Positions 29,770 to 37,567 of a stretch of 64,000 nucleotides of DNA are shown one piece after another. Both the position numbers and the translations under genes were made by a program. Source of the stretch: Candidatus Poribacteria bacterium (GTDB lineage: Bacteria; Poribacteria; WGA-4E; WGA-3G); the NCBI GenBank assembly GCA_003635185.1, contig PYJA01000138.1:43820-107819 (forward strand), in the 5' to 3' direction. Position 1 is the first letter of the stretch. Every line of letters begins with the position of its first letter. The notes beneath the pieces were generated by a model that saw only the letters and a list, made by a program, of their open reading frames with translations, was not told the DNA's origin and did not search any database.

Positions 29770-29881
29770 ACAAAGAAATGTTCCATACTGTAGCGTGGCT
29801 TATAGAGATTTTCCTTGTTATCAACGGCATATTTGGGTATACTTTAGAGATAGCTTAATATTATTGGAGGATCAAGAGGTG

Positions 29882-30766
29882 ATGAAATATTTTCGATCGA
29901 TTTTTGTTTTACTGCTTATATTAGGTGCGCCCCTACTCGCTAACGAATGGGCGACCTACTACTTTCCAGGCAAAGTTGGCAGTTCCTGGATTTATGAAGA
30001 TCAAGATGGCAACGAATTAACGCGCTACGCTGTTGAAGAAAAAAATGTTGAAGGCAATACGTTTCGCGCTTTCGAGTATGAACCTGAGATAGATGATTGG
30101 GAAAAATATATGTATGCTGTGCAACCTTTTTTGTATCAAGTCGGGGATGAATGGGTTGCTTTCTACGTTGGAGATGATATAGAAAACGCGACCGAGTCAA
30201 TCCTGAGTAAAAAACTTGACGAAACCCTTGCGATGATTCGTCAACAAACTGCAGGACAACTCCCTCCCGGTGTCACAATTGATTTTGACTATACTATTGA
30301 CCCCAAAGCACAAGATTATTTTTACCTATTTCCAACACCTATTGCATATAATGAAGAATGGGTCGCTATGGAATTAGATGTAAAAGTAGGGATGACCATG
30401 GACATTCAAGGAGCACCCGTTGAAATTCCTGCAGCACTTAAAACCGTTTCTTCTACGACAAATATTGTAGAAACAGGGAACGTTATTGGAAAAGAAACTG
30501 TTGAAACTGAAGCAGGGACTTTTGAAGAGTGCTTAAAAATTGAATATAGAACCAAAACAACCGTAGACACAGAACTCCCTCCCGAATACAAGCAGCTTCT
30601 CCCTGAGCAACAAACTAATGAGTCTGTTTCAACCTTGTGGTTAGCCCCTAATATCGGGATTGTCAAATTCAAGAGTGAACAGGAGAATTCAGATGAGGTG
30701 AAAACACTTGAATTAAAAAGCTACGAAATCCAATCTGATGAATCCGAAAACGGAGAAAGTAAATAA
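29882..30766 (+). CDS. Secreted protein, lineage-specific paralog family (member 1 of the tandem array)
   Basis: Signal peptide MKYFRSIFVLLLILGAPLLA with GGAGG RBS. Family blocks [68 protein letters not shown]. Confidence 0.6.
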   Translation: MKYFRSIFVLLLILGAPLLANEWATYYFPGKVGSSWIYEDQDGNELTRYAVEEKNVEGNTFRAFEYEPEIDDWEKYMYAVQPFLYQVGDEWVAFYVGDDIENATESILSKKLDETLAMIRQQTAGQLPPGVTIDFDYTIDPKAQDYFYLFPTPIAYNEEWVAMELDVKVGMTMDIQGAPVEIPAALKTVSSTTNIVETGNVIGKETVETEAGTFEECLKIEYRTKTTVDTELPPEYKQLLPEQQTNESVSTLWLAPNIGIVKFKSEQENSDEVKTLELKSYEIQSDESENGESK

Positions 30767-30826
30767 TCTGCGGGACCTGCTCGGACTGCTGTCAGATTGA
30801 TGATTCTTTATAAGGTGACATTCCGC

Positions 30827-31792
30827 ATGTTGAAAAAACTGTTTCCTTTCTTGATATTTTCTCTAACTTTTTATTTCAGTACGACTCTAATAGGAAACGA
30901 ATCCACGCAAAAGTATTTTCCAAGTACGCTTGATAGTTTTTGGGTTTATGAAGACCAAGGTGGGAACGAGTTCACACGTCGTGTGATTCAAGGAGAAGAA
31001 ATTGCGGGGAAGACATATTACGGTATCAGTTACGAACCTGTGTCAGAAGATTGGGCAGATTTTAACCGTTACATGCATCTTTCTCTGTTTAATATTGGGG
31101 AGGAATGGATAACGTTTTTTGTAGAAGATGAAATAAAAAAGGCCGTCATGGCACGCTTAACCAAAGAGATGGAAATTTTCTCTAAATTGGCAAAGAGTTC
31201 TTTAGAAAACAACACCCCACCCGAACTCAACCTTACTGTTGACTTCAACTATCATGTGGATGTAGAAGCAAAAGACGAATTCAATTTACTTCCGATCCAA
31301 GCAACTCCGGATGTAGAATGGGACACAACACAAATTAATGCCAAAATCACCATGAAGTTCGACATACAAGGATTGCCAGACTTCCAGGGTGCTGCAGAAA
31401 TGCCTGAATTCACACTTGATTTTACTATCCTTGAAACGGGAAAAATCCTCGGCACAGAAACTGTTGAAGTGGCCGCTGGGACGTTTAAAGATTGTCTGAA
31501 AATCGAGTATCGAACGAAAACAGAAATGACAGCATCCCAACCAACAGCAACGGGCGACTTACCGGGAGAATCGGTTACGACTTTATGGTTTGCACCCAAT
31601 GTTGGAATTGTCAAATTTCACCAACAATCTGATAAGATTTTTCTCAATTTGATGTCAGATAGAGATGCCGTTGATGCGACAATGTCTGATGAAGAAGCTG
31701 CAGAGATTACTGCTCCTTCGGTCAAGACTTATGAATTAAAGAGATACCAAATAGTGTCTGAAGTTTTACTAAACGATGACAACAAAAAATAA
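30827..31792 (+). CDS. Secreted protein, same paralog family (member 2)
   Basis: Signal peptide MLKKLFPFLIFSLTFYFSTTLIG. Blocks [60 protein letters not shown]. Confidence 0.6.
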   Translation: MLKKLFPFLIFSLTFYFSTTLIGNESTQKYFPSTLDSFWVYEDQGGNEFTRRVIQGEEIAGKTYYGISYEPVSEDWADFNRYMHLSLFNIGEEWITFFVEDEIKKAVMARLTKEMEIFSKLAKSSLENNTPPELNLTVDFNYHVDVEAKDEFNLLPIQATPDVEWDTTQINAKITMKFDIQGLPDFQGAAEMPEFTLDFTILETGKILGTETVEVAAGTFKDCLKIEYRTKTEMTASQPTATGDLPGESVTTLWFAPNVGIVKFHQQSDKIFLNLMSDRDAVDATMSDEEAAEITAPSVKTYELKRYQIVSEVLLNDDNKK

Positions 31793-31840
31793 ATAATTTT
31801 TAGACTTATACCAACCAGAAAACAGATATGGAGGGTTCTC

Positions 31841-32737
31841 ATGTTAAAAAGATTTTGTCCGGTATTGATATTACTTTTAGCCTTTGGTTTTAGCACAACC
31901 TTGTTAGGGAACGAGTCAGTGCAGAAATATTTTCCTGGCACATTAGATAGTTTTTGGGTTTATGAAGACCAGGATGGAAATGAGTTAACACGTTATTCAA
32001 TTGAAGATGAAGAAATTGCCGGTGAAACGTATCTTTCTTTTAGTTATGACCCTGAGTTAGAAGATTGGGCGAATTATAGTTGTTTTATTCATCCGGGGTT
32101 ATATAATGTGAATGATGAAGGGATCACCCTTGTTGTTGGCGACGCGGTAGAAAATGCCGTCGAAGCGCGTCTTAAAAGGGAAATGGATATGTTCGTCGAA
32201 ATTTTTAAACGAGAAATTTTTAGCCAAGCACCGCCAGGTGTAGAAATGCCCACCTTTAATTTAGATGTTGAGACACAAGGACAAGATTTTTTACTGCTAC
32301 CTGAAAATGTTGTAGTGGATGAAGAATGGGACGCAAACCAAGTCAAAGTCAATGCTAAGATGATCATGGAAGGGGCGGGCGCTTCAGAGAATGAACAATT
32401 GGGGATGGATTTCACGATAATAGAAACAGGAATTGTGCTCGGCACTGAAACTGTTGAAACGATTGCTGGGACATTTGAAGACTGTTTGAAAGTTGAATAT
32501 CGTACAGAAACAACCGTAACGCCTCCACCTGATGAAGTAGCACCGCCAGGCGAAACCGTAACGACAGTTTGGTTTGCACCTAATGTTGGAATCATAAAAT
32601 TACATCAAAAATCGGGATACATGATCTTAGACATGTTACCAGATGATGTCGCTTTACCACCTAATCAGGAAAAGACATTGGAATTAAAGAGATATGAAAT
32701 CAAAACCGCTGAATCGGAAAGTGATACTGAGAATTAA
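31841..32737 (+). CDS. Secreted protein, same paralog family (member 3)
   Basis: Signal peptide MLKRFCPVLILLLAFGFSTTLLG. Same conserved blocks. GGAGGG RBS. Confidence 0.6.
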   Translation: MLKRFCPVLILLLAFGFSTTLLGNESVQKYFPGTLDSFWVYEDQDGNELTRYSIEDEEIAGETYLSFSYDPELEDWANYSCFIHPGLYNVNDEGITLVVGDAVENAVEARLKREMDMFVEIFKREIFSQAPPGVEMPTFNLDVETQGQDFLLLPENVVVDEEWDANQVKVNAKMIMEGAGASENEQLGMDFTIIETGIVLGTETVETIAGTFEDCLKVEYRTETTVTPPPDEVAPPGETVTTVWFAPNVGIIKLHQKSGYMILDMLPDDVALPPNQEKTLELKRYEIKTAESESDTEN

Positions 32738-32784
32738 TATACAAGAAGTCAGACATCACCTTCAACTCAATTGGAGAAAATATC

Positions 32785-35478
32785 ATGTTAAAAAGACTGA
32801 ACATCATTTTAATACTTTTATTCGCCTTTAGCTTTAGTGGGACACTGCTGGCAGATGAATCTGCAAATAAATATTTTCCATCAGCGCTTGGAAGTTTTTG
32901 GGTTTATGAAGACCAAGATGGTAACGAGTTGACGCGTAAGGCGATTGAAGGCGAAGAAATTGCAGGTAAGACTTATCCAGCGTTCAGCTATGAACCTGAG
33001 TTAGAGGATTGGGCAGAATATAGTTGGTTTATTCGCCCTCCTTTGTATCAAGTGAGTAATGCTGGTATCACACTTGTTGTTAGCGATGAGGTTGAAAAAG
33101 CAGTTAAAGCACGCCTTAAGAAAGAGGTAGGTATTCTCACTGATGCAATAAAACGGGATGCTCCAGTGGACGTAGGTATTGACGCTGATATTAAGGTACA
33201 GGGACAAAACCAGTTATTCCTCCTCCCCGACACTATTACTTTCAATGAGGAGTGGGACGTTAACCAGATTGAAGCAAACGTCAAGATGAAATTTCTGGGT
33301 GGAGGTGCCCCAGAAGATCAACCATTGGTAATTGATTTCACGATTTTAGAAACAGCAATTATCTCTGGTACTGAAACTGTTGAAACACCTGCTGGAAAGT
33401 TTGAAGACTGCCTGAAAGTTGAATATCGTACAGAAACTACTGCAGCAATGACACCTGCCCCGCCACCCGATGAAGTAGACCCGCCAGGAGAAACCGTAAC
33501 GACTGTATGGTATGCGCCAAATGTCGGAATTGTCCAATTTCGTCAGGAAACGAATTACATTTTCTTAGAAATGATTCCAGACGATGAAGACCTTCCTGTG
33601 CCACCTGGACCTAAAACGAAAACATTTAAATTAAAGAGATATGAAATCAAATCGGGTAATTTTGAAGGTGTTGAGAAAAAATCTATTACGACACCCAAGC
33701 CACTAAAAGATGATACCGAAAAAGGAAAAACTAAAACAAGTAACGCACAATCCCCGAATTATTTTCCCGGCACATTAGATAGTTTTTGGATTTACGAAGA
33801 CCAAGACGGTAATGAGTTAACGCGCCATGCAATTGAAGGTGAGGAAATTGCTGGTAAAACTTATCCTGCATTCAGTTATGAACCGGAGTTAGAGGATTGG
33901 ACGAAATATAGTCCTTTTATTCGTCCTTCTCTATACCAAGTGAGTGAGGTAGGGCTAACGCTTGTTGTCAGTGATGAGGTGAAAAAAGCTGTCAAAGCAC
34001 GCCTAAAAAAAGAGATAGATACTTTCGTCCAAACGGCAAATGCTGAAGCAGGAGGCCCTGATTATGATTGGAATGTAGAGATTGAGGTAAAGATAAAAGA
34101 CAATTTGTTACTTTTACCCGATGCTATTAATGTCAATGAAGAGTGGGATGCGAACCAGATTAAAGCCAACGTGAAGTTAACCGATATAATTGATGATGTT
34201 CCGGATGAAGATGATCCATTCTATTTAGATTTCACCATCGTCGAAACAGGGATTGTATTAGGCATGGAAACTATTGAAACACCTGCTGGAATATTTGAAG
34301 ACTGTCTCAAAGTTGAATATCGCACAGAAACAACAGTAGTATTTGACCCTCATGAGGATGCAGATCCACCTGGTGAAACTGTAACAACAGTATGGTTTGC
34401 TCCCAATGTCGGAATCGTAAAATTACATCAAAAAGTGAAATACATTTTTTTAGAGTTGATCCCAGATGATGCTGATTTTCCAATGCCTCCTGACCCTAAA
34501 CCGAAAACATTTGAATTAAAGAAATATGAAATCAAATCTGCTGATACTGAAAGCAGCAAAAGTAATTCAAAGGCTGCTGTAAAATCGGCAGAAGACAAAG
34601 TTGAAACTAAAAAAGCAAAACCTTCATCAGATGGCGCGCAGCGTTCAAATTATTTTCCAAGCACTTTAGGGAGTTTTTGGATTTATGAAGACCAGGATGG
34701 TAACGAATTGACGCGTCATGCAATTGAAGGTGAAGAGATTGCAGGTAAAACTTATCCTGCATTCAGTTATGAACCGGAGTTAGAGGACTGGGCAGAATAT
34801 AATCCTTTTATTCGACCATCCCTATTTAACAGAAGTGATGCTGGAATCAAACTCATTGTCAAGGATGAGGTTGAAAAAGCAGTTAAAGCACGCCTAAAAA
34901 AAGAGATGGATATTTTAGTCAAGGGAATGAAAGAACAAGTTCCACCAGAGGTAGGTATCCCTCCCGACTTTGATTTGAATGTTGATATTGAGGTGAAGGG
35001 AAAAGAAATTTTTTTTCTGCTACCTGAAACTGTTGAAAACAATGAAGAATGGGATGTCAATCAGATTGCTGCCAACGTAAAATTAACCTTTGAGGGTGAG
35101 GGAATTCCAGCCGGAGAACAAGCAGCAATGAATTTTACGATTATAGAAACAGGAATTGTTTTAGGCACAGAAGTTGTTGAAACTGCTTCTGCCGGTAAAT
35201 TTGAAGATTGCCTAAAAGTTGAATACCGCACAGAAACAACAGCGGTGTTTACTCCTGATGACGCTGATGGTATGGATCCTCCTGGTGAAACCGTAACGAC
35301 AGTTTGGTTTGCTCCCAACGTCGGAATCGTAAAATTACATCAAAAATCGGGGCACACCTTCTTAGATATGTTCCCGGATGATTCTTCTTATGTTTTTCCA
35401 CTTAAGAAAGAAAAGACCTTTGAATTAAAGAAATATGAAATCAAATCTGAAGAACCGGAAAATGAGGTAAGCAATTAA
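32785..35478 (+). CDS. Secreted protein, same paralog family: three tandem copies of the family domain fused in one 897-aa ORF (member 4)
   Basis: One signal peptide, then three about 270-aa units each containing [65 protein letters not shown] and K.YEIKS. Internal units share long identical stretches (ELTRHAIEGEEIAGKTYPAFSYEPELEDW). Confidence 0.6.
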   Translation: MLKRLNIILILLFAFSFSGTLLADESANKYFPSALGSFWVYEDQDGNELTRKAIEGEEIAGKTYPAFSYEPELEDWAEYSWFIRPPLYQVSNAGITLVVSDEVEKAVKARLKKEVGILTDAIKRDAPVDVGIDADIKVQGQNQLFLLPDTITFNEEWDVNQIEANVKMKFLGGGAPEDQPLVIDFTILETAIISGTETVETPAGKFEDCLKVEYRTETTAAMTPAPPPDEVDPPGETVTTVWYAPNVGIVQFRQETNYIFLEMIPDDEDLPVPPGPKTKTFKLKRYEIKSGNFEGVEKKSITTPKPLKDDTEKGKTKTSNAQSPNYFPGTLDSFWIYEDQDGNELTRHAIEGEEIAGKTYPAFSYEPELEDWTKYSPFIRPSLYQVSEVGLTLVVSDEVKKAVKARLKKEIDTFVQTANAEAGGPDYDWNVEIEVKIKDNLLLLPDAINVNEEWDANQIKANVKLTDIIDDVPDEDDPFYLDFTIVETGIVLGMETIETPAGIFEDCLKVEYRTETTVVFDPHEDADPPGETVTTVWFAPNVGIVKLHQKVKYIFLELIPDDADFPMPPDPKPKTFELKKYEIKSADTESSKSNSKAAVKSAEDKVETKKAKPSSDGAQRSNYFPSTLGSFWIYEDQDGNELTRHAIEGEEIAGKTYPAFSYEPELEDWAEYNPFIRPSLFNRSDAGIKLIVKDEVEKAVKARLKKEMDILVKGMKEQVPPEVGIPPDFDLNVDIEVKGKEIFFLLPETVENNEEWDVNQIAANVKLTFEGEGIPAGEQAAMNFTIIETGIVLGTEVVETASAGKFEDCLKVEYRTETTAVFTPDDADGMDPPGETVTTVWFAPNVGIVKLHQKSGHTFLDMFPDDSSYVFPLKKEKTFELKKYEIKSEEPENEVSN

Positions 35479-35510
35479 TAGTATCAGACACATCATTTGT
35501 TCCTTAAACT

Positions 35511-35600
35511 TATATCTAACGTGAGTTTGATAAAAGCCTATTGTAGAGCAAACTTTCCAGTTTGCGCCATAGCACACAAACTGGAAAGTTTGATGCTCAA
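35511..35600. repeat. Family H TIR fragment plus family G REP-like hairpin pair
   Basis: AACGTGAGTTTGATAAAAG, then GCAAACTTTCCAGTTTGC..CACAAACTGGAAAGTTTGATGCTCAAG. Confidence 0.45.
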
Positions 35601-35702
35601 GAACCGCAAGGTGGGTCTTCGGAGAAAAGACCTATTATTGAGCTGATGTCATTTATTATCAAACTGGTGTTAAATCTATAATTGTCAATTAAAGGAGTTA
35701 TT

Positions 35703-36593
35703 ATGTTGAAAAAATTTTGTGCTGTCCTGATATTTTTGTTCGTCTGTAGTTTTAGTGCAACCCTACTTGGAAATGAGACAGCGAAAAAGTATTTTCCCAG
35801 CACGCTTGGAAGTTTTTGGGTTTATGAAGATCAGGATGGCAATGAGTTGACGCGTAAGGCGGTTCAAGGTGAAGAGATTGCAGGTGAAATGTATCATGCT
35901 TTTGAATATGAACCGGCATTTGAAGAAAATTGGGAGAAGTATGAGTATTACGTTCATCCCACGCTTTTTAAGGTAAAGGATACAGGAATTAAGTTCTTGA
36001 TTGGTGATGAGTTTAAGAAGGCTTACCAGAAACGCCTGGAAAAAGAGTTAAAAGATTCTATACAACAAACAGGAGGACCACCGGGATTTACGCCTAACTA
36101 CGATGTTAAGGTAGAAGTAGTAACACAAGAAAATTTCTTTTTGCTCCCTACCCCTTTCACCCTCAACGAAGAATGGGATTCAATGCGTCTAAAACCCACC
36201 GTCAAGATAACGATGAGTTTTGCAAACTCAGATGTTGATGTAGAGTTGGCAGGGATGTCGCAGCAAAGCACGATTTATTTCACTATTATGGAGACAGGTA
36301 TTGTCAGTAGCAAAGAAACCGTTGAGACACCTGCTGGCACGTTCAAAGACTGTTTGAAAGTTGAATACCGGACAAAAACTGTGATGCCGTCATTCGCTGG
36401 GGAAGGCGGTCCAAAGGCAGGTGAATCTGTTTCAACATTATGGTTAGCTCCCAACGTCGGCATTGTAAAATTTCACCAAGAAGCGGAGAAACCGACTCTC
36501 AGTGATTTCAATAATTCTGAAACCACGACACAAGTGAAGACACTTGAATTGAAGAAATATGAAATCAAAACTGATGCAGCGGAGGCTGAATGA
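35703..36593 (+). CDS. Secreted protein, same paralog family (member 5)
   Basis: Signal peptide [23 protein letters not shown]. Blocks [70 protein letters not shown]. Stop overlaps the hemB start (ATGA). Confidence 0.6.
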
Positions 36594-37567
36594 GCGTTTT
36601 TCCTATCTATCGTCCAAGACGACTACGCGCAAGTGAAAACCTACGGCGCCTCGTGCGAGAAACGAGTCTGTCTGTAGACGATCTCATCTATCCAATGTTT
36701 GTTGTCCACGGAGATGACACGGCAATAGAAATTTCTTCTATGCCAGGATGCTACCAATATTCTATTGATCGGCTCGTTAAAGCTGCGAAGGAGCTTGCAT
36801 CGCTTGGAATTCCTGGGACGATCTTGTTCGGAATTCCTGAAACGAAAGATGCACTTGGATCGGAAGCTTATGCAGAAGATGGCATCATTCAGCAGGCGGT
36901 ACGTGCCATTAAGGACGCAGTCTCCGACCTGCTTGTGATTACAGACGTTTGTCTGTGTGAATATACTGATCACGGACACTGCGGTATCATTGAAGGCGGA
37001 GATGTGCAGAACGATCCTACACTTGATTTGCTTGTTAAAGAGAGTGTATCGCACGCGCGGGCAGGCGCTGATGTTATTGCTCCATCGGATATGATGGATG
37101 GCCGTGTCGGCGCAATTCGCGATGCCTTAGACGAAGAAGGCTATGAAAATATACCTATAATGGCGTATTCGGCAAAATACGCTTCTGCTTTTTATGGTCC
37201 CTTTCGTGAAGCGGCAGAATCAGCACCGCAATTCGGTGATCGCCGTTCATATCAGATGGACCCAGCGAATGCAGAGGAAGCACTACGGGAAGTGGCGTTG
37301 GATATTGAGGAAGGCGCAGACATTGTAATGGTGAAACCAGCACTCTCATATCTTGACGTTATCCATCAAGTGAAGACAGAATTTCAGATGCCTGTTGCAG
37401 CCTACAACGTCAGTGGCGAATATGCTATGATAAAGGCAGCCGCACAGAATGAATGGATTGATGAAAAACGCGTAGCACTGGAGGTCTTAACAAGTATCAA
37501 ACGTGCTGGTGCAGATATGATTTTGACCTACTTCGCAAAGTCGGTCGTTGAATGGCTTGAAATTTGA
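36590..37567 (+). CDS. hemB: Porphobilinogen synthase (delta-aminolevulinic acid dehydratase)
   Basis: N-terminus [21 protein letters not shown] and active-site region with the Schiff-base lysine in VMVKPAL. Confidence 0.9.

Follow-up and report, generated by a model that had tools for sequence, protein, structure and literature searches.

Introduction

Proteins of the DUF3108 family have been described only as beta-barrels with the YmcC fold and of unknown function (PMC4364669), and YmcC itself, also named GfcB, is an outer-membrane lipoprotein that dimerises, as homodimers and as heterodimers, and binds partners of the group 4 capsule machinery (PMC8592465). Here we analysed a 64,000-nt stretch of a Candidatus Poribacteria genome (contig PYJA01000138.1, positions 43,820 to 107,819; hereafter the window) and characterised gene D (32785-35478, + strand), which encodes an 897-aa secreted protein with three DUF3108-like units in one chain, deposited at NCBI as the hypothetical protein C6501_19215. 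The family genes a, b, c, D and e all lie on the + strand, with gene D in fourth place; together they hold seven units (29882-36593), and our literature search found no description of such multi-unit DUF3108-like arrays. The original prediction, made from the sequence of the window, had read gene D as a recent triple fusion of the domain; the in-frame fusion of three units stands, and the age given to it was wrong. We consider it probable that gene D is a genuine and long-standing gene of several units, shuffled by recombination, within an array of exported DUF3108-like (YmcC-fold) proteins that occurs across the Poribacteria.

Architecture of gene D

Gene D is a single intact open reading frame (ORF) on a 112-kb contig of a Candidatus Poribacteria metagenome-assembled genome (MAG). 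The protein begins with a signal peptide and a short spacer (32785-32868, aa 1-28, MLKRLNIILILLFAFSFSGTLLADESAN, cleavage site predicted), followed by unit 1 (32869-33651, aa 29-289), linker X (33652-33756, aa 290-324, SGNFEGVEKKSITTPKPLKDDTEKGKTKTSNAQSP), unit 2 (33757-34536, aa 325-584), linker Y (34537-34647, aa 585-621, SADTESSKSNSKAAVKSAEDKVETKKAKPSSDGAQRS), unit 3 (34648-35445, aa 622-887), and the short, acidic C-terminal tail SEEPENEVSN with the stop codon (35446-35478), all on the + strand; the tail is kept in relatives irrespective of which unit ends the protein. A hidden Markov model (HMM) built from the family units of the window covered each of the three units end to end with 428-438 bits, and Pfam PF21347 (DUF3108-like) gave 81.7 bits with three matched stretches (gathering cut-off 27), which bears out the three complete units read earlier from the ORF; the K/T/S-rich linkers and both central blocks quoted at that time are also present verbatim. 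Pfam PF11306 (DUF3108) reached 38.8 bits only as the sum over the three units (cut-off 26), NCBIfam returned no family for gene D, and the PADLOC defence-protein models gave no match at E <= 0.01.

In the full-length structure model the signal peptide forms a helix at aa 2-21; its sequence is identical in the homologue P0009 and nearly identical in P0015, P0018 and P0019. It has no lipobox cysteine, the only cysteines of the protein being those at 209, 507 and 809. The direct-repeat spacing within gene D is 888/891 nt, and between the neighbouring genes 944-1014 nt. These data support gene D as three units of the surrounding array's family joined in frame, and it is a new, uncharacterised member both of the DUF3108-like domain family and of the recombining tandem paralogue arrays.

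Divergence of the three units

Exact-protein look-ups of three homologues led to syntenic Poribacteria loci, and a scan of species-representative genomes contributed another 33, of which all except one came from Poribacteria records and many were at chromosome level; the closest relatives of the window genome are L001, L002 and L003. Between the window and these three loci the flanking proteins were 93-98% identical, genes a, b and c 84-98% and gene e 77-95%, and the synonymous divergence (dS) of the flanking genes (gfo, hemB, hemL and CoA-transferase) was 0.08-0.30 to L001, 0.23-0.29 to L002 and 0.44-0.62 to L003. Within gene D, the three units were pairwise 67-68% identical in protein and 71-75% in DNA. 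NG86 dS was lowest between units 2 and 3 (0.85-0.88), intermediate between units 1 and 2 (0.98-1.04) and highest between units 1 and 3 (1.16-1.17); these values exceed 3-10 times over the flanking-gene dS that separates the window genome from its closest relatives. Therefore, the duplications that gave rise to the units (inter-unit dS 0.85-1.17) predate the split of all four genomes. The ratio of nonsynonymous (dN) to synonymous divergence between units was about 0.22, with purifying selection on every unit.

The earlier reading had units 2 and 3, or all three units, arise by recent in-frame tandem duplication, after which the central blocks diverged fast. It draws on a 40-aa stretch that is identical in units 2 and 3, together with further identical blocks of 10 and 21 aa, on the regular unit spacing of 888/891 nt, and on the younger intragenic duplicates (85-90% aa identity) that exist in other genomes. 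The claimed identity at the DNA level was not found: the 120 nt that encode the 40-aa stretch hold 11 synonymous differences (90.8% identity), and the longest exact DNA match of any two units is 44 nt (33853/34744). The peptide VKKAVKARLKKE, quoted as a shared stretch, occurs in unit 2 only; just KAVKARLKKE is common, and it is found in all three units. In the conserved head (unit codons 1-52) units 2 and 3 differ with a dS of 0.84 and a dN of 0.044, and in the core with a dS of 0.81 and a dN of 0.29; because head and core have the same dS and the head a far lower dN, the identical peptides reflect strong purifying selection. Gene conversion behind the identical heads was ruled out, since the dS of the head equals that of the core. 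The comparison of the stretch with itself that had been proposed as a check returned copies of only 71-75% DNA identity with exact matches of at most 44 nt, and Tandem Repeats Finder reported nothing between 28000 and 38000, because the copies are too diverged for it.

Relationships among the units pointed in the same direction. The core tree (neighbour-joining on core columns, 200 bootstraps) placed units 2 and 3 as sisters in 0/200 bootstraps and the three units as a clade in 0/200. Gene c, with 62-65% aa identity and dS of 0.9-1.3 to the three units, is nearly as near to them as they are to one another. Unit 1 grouped with unit 3 of L001 at 100% bootstrap, inside a "gamma" clade of last units (99%), with 94% aa identity to L001 unit 3, 79% to L002 unit 3 and 80% to L003 unit 2, the last unit of that protein; the four proteins have a common signal peptide despite unit 1 of the window matching the last unit of the relatives. 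Unit 2 matched best units 3 and 5 of the 5-unit protein P0001 (72-73% aa) and formed a clade with them (91% bootstrap), and the core of unit 3, an orphan lineage, matched best P0088 at 69%. An origin of unit 3 as an offshoot of the gene c lineage received 30% bootstrap and is not claimed. For units 2 and 3 no counterpart above 68% was found in L001-L003. Thus the near-identical synonymous sites and mutual closest relationship by which a recent tandem duplication is recognised were absent from the gene D units, and the dN/dS ratio gave no sign of runaway divergence of the central blocks. Saturation of the synonymous sites by a local mutational process is opposed by the orthologous core of unit 1, whose dS to L001 is 0.067. 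We regard recent duplication as highly improbable; the three barrels are three separate old unit lineages, not recent copies of one another.

Multi-unit genes in relatives

A multi-unit gene with 2-4 units was found at the same penultimate array position in at least six other Poribacteria species, several of them in chromosome-level records. The gene at the gene D position has three units in L001, in L002 (chromosome OZ244889.1, 5.24 Mb), in L006 and in L009, two units in L003, and four units in L007; further, 2-, 3-, 4- and 5-unit proteins were common in a collection of 5.8 billion proteins. The multi-unit fusion as such is therefore old and real in this clade. Younger intragenic duplicates were observed elsewhere, namely units 2 and 4 of L007 at 90% and units 1 and 3 of L006 at 85%, and in L008 a younger duplicate was formed by g2.3 and g3.2 at 90%.

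A different, stable two-unit fusion is present at the second array position in L013, L015, L018, L020, L024 and L006, which represent another Poribacteria clade. The two units of this fusion show 36-47% mutual identity, and they are 67-95% identical to their positional orthologues in five of the six loci (52-58% in L006). This second-position fusion is old and without shuffling, unlike that at the D position.

Mosaic structure and recombination

When unit 1 was painted in 15-codon steps against the relatives, we observed that its first ~30 codons were 93-98% identical in nucleotides to unit 1 of L001, L002 and L003, and that from about codon 46 on it was 92-100% identical to unit 3 of L001. 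Among informative sites up to 33003, 22 of 25 matched L001 unit 1, and beyond this point 225 of 230 matched L001 unit 3 (breakpoint about 33003-33009, Fisher p = 5.7e-24). The core of unit 1 had a dS of 0.067 to L001 unit 3, and its head a dS of 1.6 to L001 unit 3 and 0.28 to L001 unit 1. In unit 1 the head of the positional unit 1 is joined to a gamma core, the last unit in relatives, which makes unit 1 a chimera with a breakpoint zone (32965-33009, +) within the conserved IAGKTYPAFSYEPELEDW block; the pattern is the signature of a crossover inside this block.

A colinear alignment with the three-unit gene of L002 gave a similar alternation along the whole of gene D. The signal peptide and head 1 were 96-98% identical in nucleotides, linker X with the first unit 2 codons (33682-33771) 93-98%, the remaining head 2 82-87%, linker Y (34534-34668) 89-91%, head 3 80-98% with a peak at 34804-34893, and the tail 89-100%, whereas the three cores reached only 42-76%, so that all three are non-orthologous to those of L002. 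The scaffold of signal peptide, heads, both linkers and tail is, by contrast, orthologous at 90-98% in nucleotides. In unit 3 the head is orthologous to that of L002 unit 3 up to 34893. Linker X is also present in L001 (between units 2 and 3) and in L002 (between units 1 and 2), and linker Y is kept in L001, L002 and L003, with a different order in L001. With SP for signal peptide and u for a unit outside the gamma clade, the order is SP-gamma-X-u-Y-u in the window, SP-u-Y-u-X-gamma in L001, SP-u-X-u-Y-gamma in L002 and SP-u-Y-gamma in L003.

A comparable change was found at the start of the array. Downstream of gfo, L001 holds one more single-unit gene, g1, placed before gene a and strongly diverged (~44% identity to the others), and comparison of window 29770-29930 with L001 5954-7264 showed that gene a of the window has a g1-type upstream region and first signal-peptide part joined to a body of the L001 g2 type, the switch lying at about 29910-29930. 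The lack of a separate g1 in the window is a second unit-level insertion or deletion (indel) in this array.

The array consists of same-strand adjacent paralogues, its unit number and content vary between relatives with conserved flanks, and it contains chimeric units, as is characteristic of recombination in tandem arrays. Gene D is a mosaic maintained by homologous recombination at the conserved head and end of each unit, and the breakpoint, the permuted linkers, the gene a indel and the younger duplicates elsewhere show unit-level recombination to be an active process in the array. Unequal crossing-over in the array, which the original prediction had put forward, was right in kind, as indicated by the chimeric unit 1, the 2-, 3- and 4-unit genes at this position and the gene a indel, and these reasons differ from the near-identity of copies on which it had been based.

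We asked whether the three-unit ORF, or the order of its units, could be an assembly artefact, that is, a mis-join of co-occurring Poribacteria strains across conserved heads. In favour of an artefact, the contig comes from a MAG, no second assembly contains the gene D protein, the breakpoint of unit 1 coincides with the best-conserved block of that unit, and for units 2 and 3 orthologues are lacking elsewhere. However, the longest exact repeat of the whole array is 44 nt, and in relatives the unit 1 head matches the gamma head exactly over only 23-26 nt, a length that makes a k-mer mis-join improbable. With a DNA identity of 71-75% among them, the units are unlikely to have collapsed or expanded in assembly. 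The reading frame is unbroken, and each unit is under purifying selection. Multi-unit genes stand at the same position in chromosome-level assemblies and independent records, and an artefactual chimera would have to combine three source strains without loss of frame. We therefore judge an artefact improbable, and the risk of repeat collapse or expansion is low because exact repeats are at most 44 nt.

History of the gene D allele

The flanking proteins of the window and of L001-L003 are 93-98% identical, yet two of the three gene D units are non-orthologous. As the probable history, we propose that the ancestral allele would have held at least five units, joined by X and Y linkers in alternation, as in the 5-unit P0001, and that unequal crossing-over between unit heads or ends would have trimmed it differently in each lineage. 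In the window genome, a head-to-head crossover would have deleted all that lay between the unit 1 head and the gamma core. In P0001 a gamma unit is followed by an X-like linker and then by a unit-2-like barrel, the same adjacency as in the window, which favours the longer ancestral allele.

The alternative to this history is import, in which X-unit 2-Y-unit 3 would have entered through one homologous recombination from a divergent unsampled Poribacteria lineage or a paralogous locus, replacing part of an L001-like three-unit gene. The flanks of window and L001 differ by a dS of only 0.08-0.30, yet two of three units are non-orthologous, and potential donor family loci exist elsewhere in Poribacteria genomes (L022, L025-L028, L032-L034 and L036). 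On the tree of the flanking genes one gain also beats three losses. Against import, no donor was found in the 5.8 billion proteins, the 33 genome loci or the metagenome scans, the adjacency of gamma, X-like linker and unit-2-like barrel in P0001 suggests that this arrangement is old, and linker and head sequences 89-98% orthologous to those of L002 fit a vertical descent of the scaffold. We hold import to be unlikely, while giving it more room than the artefact.

Several observations weigh against the reading of gene D as an old, shuffled member of the array. Differential loss needs three independent losses of units 2 and 3 on the genome tree implied by flanking dS, (L003,(L002,(W,L001))), where W is the window, and a single import from an unsampled lineage is more parsimonious in the number of events. 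In none of the collections searched did units 2 and 3 have an orthologue above ~73%, and an exact-protein look-up found no record of the gene D protein in other public assemblies, so that the exact arrangement is known from one MAG contig only. Local alignments of linkers X and Y with the array's own tail, spacer and signal-peptide DNA scored within or barely above shuffles. On the side of fold and context, the TM-scores of the gene c model against 4fvs and 3fzx, 0.41-0.54 (target-normalised 0.47-0.54), represent a moderate match, and the link to haem synthesis is one of position only.

Other searches gave similar results for the orphan part of the gene. A protein search with units 2 and 3 minus the linkers found nothing above ~71% identity, a metagenome scan with linker X-unit 2-linker Y-unit 3 (33652-35478) gave 41 pattern matches, none of them related, and a back-translated pattern of the unit 2 core peptide gave no match. 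Regarding the linkers, the score of 29 for the local alignment of X with A>B, against a shuffle maximum of 25, was treated as not shown, and the fusion route of the gene D linkers is not traceable from intergenic or signal-peptide DNA of the array. In P0007, P0011, P0020 and P0006, from other Poribacteria lineages, the linkers hold NLGNESDSKYFP, which matches the signal-peptide end LLGNESxxKYFP and is a relic of adjacent-gene fusion with the hydrophobic part of the signal peptide lost, the way in which multi-unit genes arose.

The array and its hemB neighbourhood

The array is flanked by a Gfo/Idh/MocA oxidoreductase gene on one side and by hemB on the other, and the remaining window ORFs of 100 aa or longer include no other copy of the family. 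All genes of the array lie on the + strand and, apart from gene D, each encodes a single unit. Gene a (29882-30766) has a DUF3108-like unit with a signal peptide; its ORF was listed from TTG 29759, and ATG 29882 is the likely start. Gene b (30797-31792) probably starts in truth at ATG 30827 (MLKKLFPF...) and is 91-93% identical in aa to its positional orthologues of L001 and L002. Gene c (31841-32737) is the closest relative in the window of the three fused units (62-65% aa), and gene e (35703-36593), listed from TTG 35682 with a likely start at ATG 35703 after AGGAG, is 94-95% identical in aa to L002 e. The four single-unit genes scored 34.9-38.4 bits against PF21347 (cut-off 27) and 13.6-18.8 bits against PF11306, under the 26-bit cut-off.

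The start of hemB (porphobilinogen synthase, ALAD; 36590-37567, +) overlaps the stop of gene e by 4 nt (ATGA, 36590-36593), and the same 4-nt stop/start overlap of the last array gene with hemB was present in 25 of 28 Poribacteria loci. Beyond the array lies a haem operon with hemB, hemL, a polyprenyl synthase gene, NAD_binding_7, a CcsA-like gene, hemA and hemC. In every locus with hemB, the array was located between the Gfo/Idh/MocA oxidoreductase gene and hemB-hemL, and its size ranged from 1 to 8 units across 25 distinct loci. The overlap in the window and in these loci suggests that, throughout the phylum, the array and the haem-synthesis genes are very probably transcribed together and coupled in translation.

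The 224-nt spacer between D and e (35479-35702) contains a perfect 16-bp inverted repeat (35549-35592; CAAACTTTCCAGTTTG ... CAAACTGGAAAGTTTG, 12-nt loop), of which none is expected by chance, and a second small GC hairpin comes after it. The inverted repeat is kept in L002, which also has a long D-to-e spacer; the spacers of L001 and L003 are short. Rfam assigned no family to the D-e spacer and gave only sub-threshold eukaryotic snoRNA and miRNA noise, and promoter and terminator scans over the array found site counts no higher than in shuffles.

Fold, export and possible role

The AlphaFold model of gene c (pLDDT 87.3, pTM 0.82) matched the YmcC-like fold only. Foldseek placed it with 4fvs (E 4.8e-8) and 3fzx (E 1.0e-7), both with probability 1.0, and with 2in5 (YmcC/GfcB; E 5.7e-3, probability 0.91), and phmmer gave a sequence match to 4fvs of 4.9e-4. 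The model has an added long helix at aa 100-125. For full-length gene D, the model was of low global confidence (pLDDT 63.9, pTM 0.37, from an 11-sequence alignment) and was used only for the repeated secondary-structure pattern and the disorder of the linkers. One secondary-structure pattern was repeated three times, and the linkers (aa 288-323 and 584-620) were without secondary structure at pLDDT below 50 (24-31). From this model we infer that gene D would form a chain of three dissimilar barrels, carried like beads on flexible tethers, on the outside of the cytoplasm.

Each unit has one cysteine in the motif FEDCLKVEY, the column being invariant across 71 homologues: Cys209 (33409-33411), Cys507 (34303-34305) and Cys809 (35209-35211), with the equivalent residue also present in genes a, b, c and e. 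That an exported barrel keeps a single, invariant cysteine may point to a ligand-binding or chemical role. The same unit was also found in other proteins (the P0061, P0063, P0062 set), as a single family unit (~50% identical) at the C-terminus of 1450-aa BlaR1-M56 / leucine-rich-repeat / ExbD-like proteins and as a single unit near the N-terminus of a PEGA and FGE-sulfatase protein; this reuse indicates a portable extracytoplasmic domain.

The barrels might serve in binding or interaction outside the cytoplasm, with a frame that is conserved and a core that evolves fast, the fusion might give a fixed 1:1:1 set of three specificities, and the array might be co-expressed with hemB. A further step would make the hemB-coupled array a functional partner of tetrapyrrole metabolism or of envelope biology in sponge symbionts, a set of exported barrels that each carry the invariant cysteine, and the cassette-exchanged cores on a conserved linker scaffold a recombination-driven binding repertoire (used, for instance, in handling haem or porphyrin or in contacts with host or phage) and not a neutral by-product of duplication; we regard this proposal as doubtful.

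Comparison with known systems

On present evidence, the window documents an ordinary evolutionary process acting on an uncharacterised protein. It nevertheless records a phylum-wide array of secreted DUF3108-like barrels in Poribacteria, the dominant sponge symbionts, and gives a concrete case of multi-domain proteins that are built and rebuilt from tandem paralogues; the coupling with haem synthesis is a positional clue for a domain family of unknown function. Further, long identical peptides between repeats are not proof of recent duplication once the synonymous sites have diverged.

Closest to the gene D units are PF21347/PF11306 and the structures 3FZX (Bacteroides fragilis BF2203) and 4FVS (Parabacteroides distasonis BDI_3050), which are likewise exported and of uncharacterised function. 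Unlike these structures (~210 aa), the units of the gene D family are ~260 aa long with an added long helix and a highly conserved N-terminal head, and the Poribacteria domain is repeated 2-5 times per chain in hemB-linked tandem arrays. E. coli GfcB (YmcC, PDB 2IN5) resembles gene D as an extracytoplasmic beta-rich protein with a distant resemblance in fold, and covalent fusion of units in gene D could, by analogy, mimic the dimerisation of GfcB. However, GfcB is a lipoprotein and gene D has no lipobox, the gene c model gave a TM-score of only 0.26-0.35 against 2IN5 with no sequence match, and gfc, wza or capsule genes are not near gene D, whose neighbours are Gfo/Idh/MocA, hemB, hemL, polyprenyl synthase, hemA and hemC.

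As to the mode of evolution, the Staphylococcus aureus lpl lipoprotein cluster (PMC2568036) and the esaG immunity-gene strings (PMC9484751) are examples of tandem paralogue clusters that evolve by homologous recombination, and they are described as same-strand arrays of envelope or exported paralogues like that of the window, in which copy number and content vary between close relatives, recombination occurs at conserved segments, and the evolving unit is not the ORF. In the window array this evolving unit is the core with its linker and the next head. The window array differs from both in that it belongs to another domain family and phylum, and in that some of its units have become a single polypeptide by in-frame fusion, with disordered linkers that are conserved.

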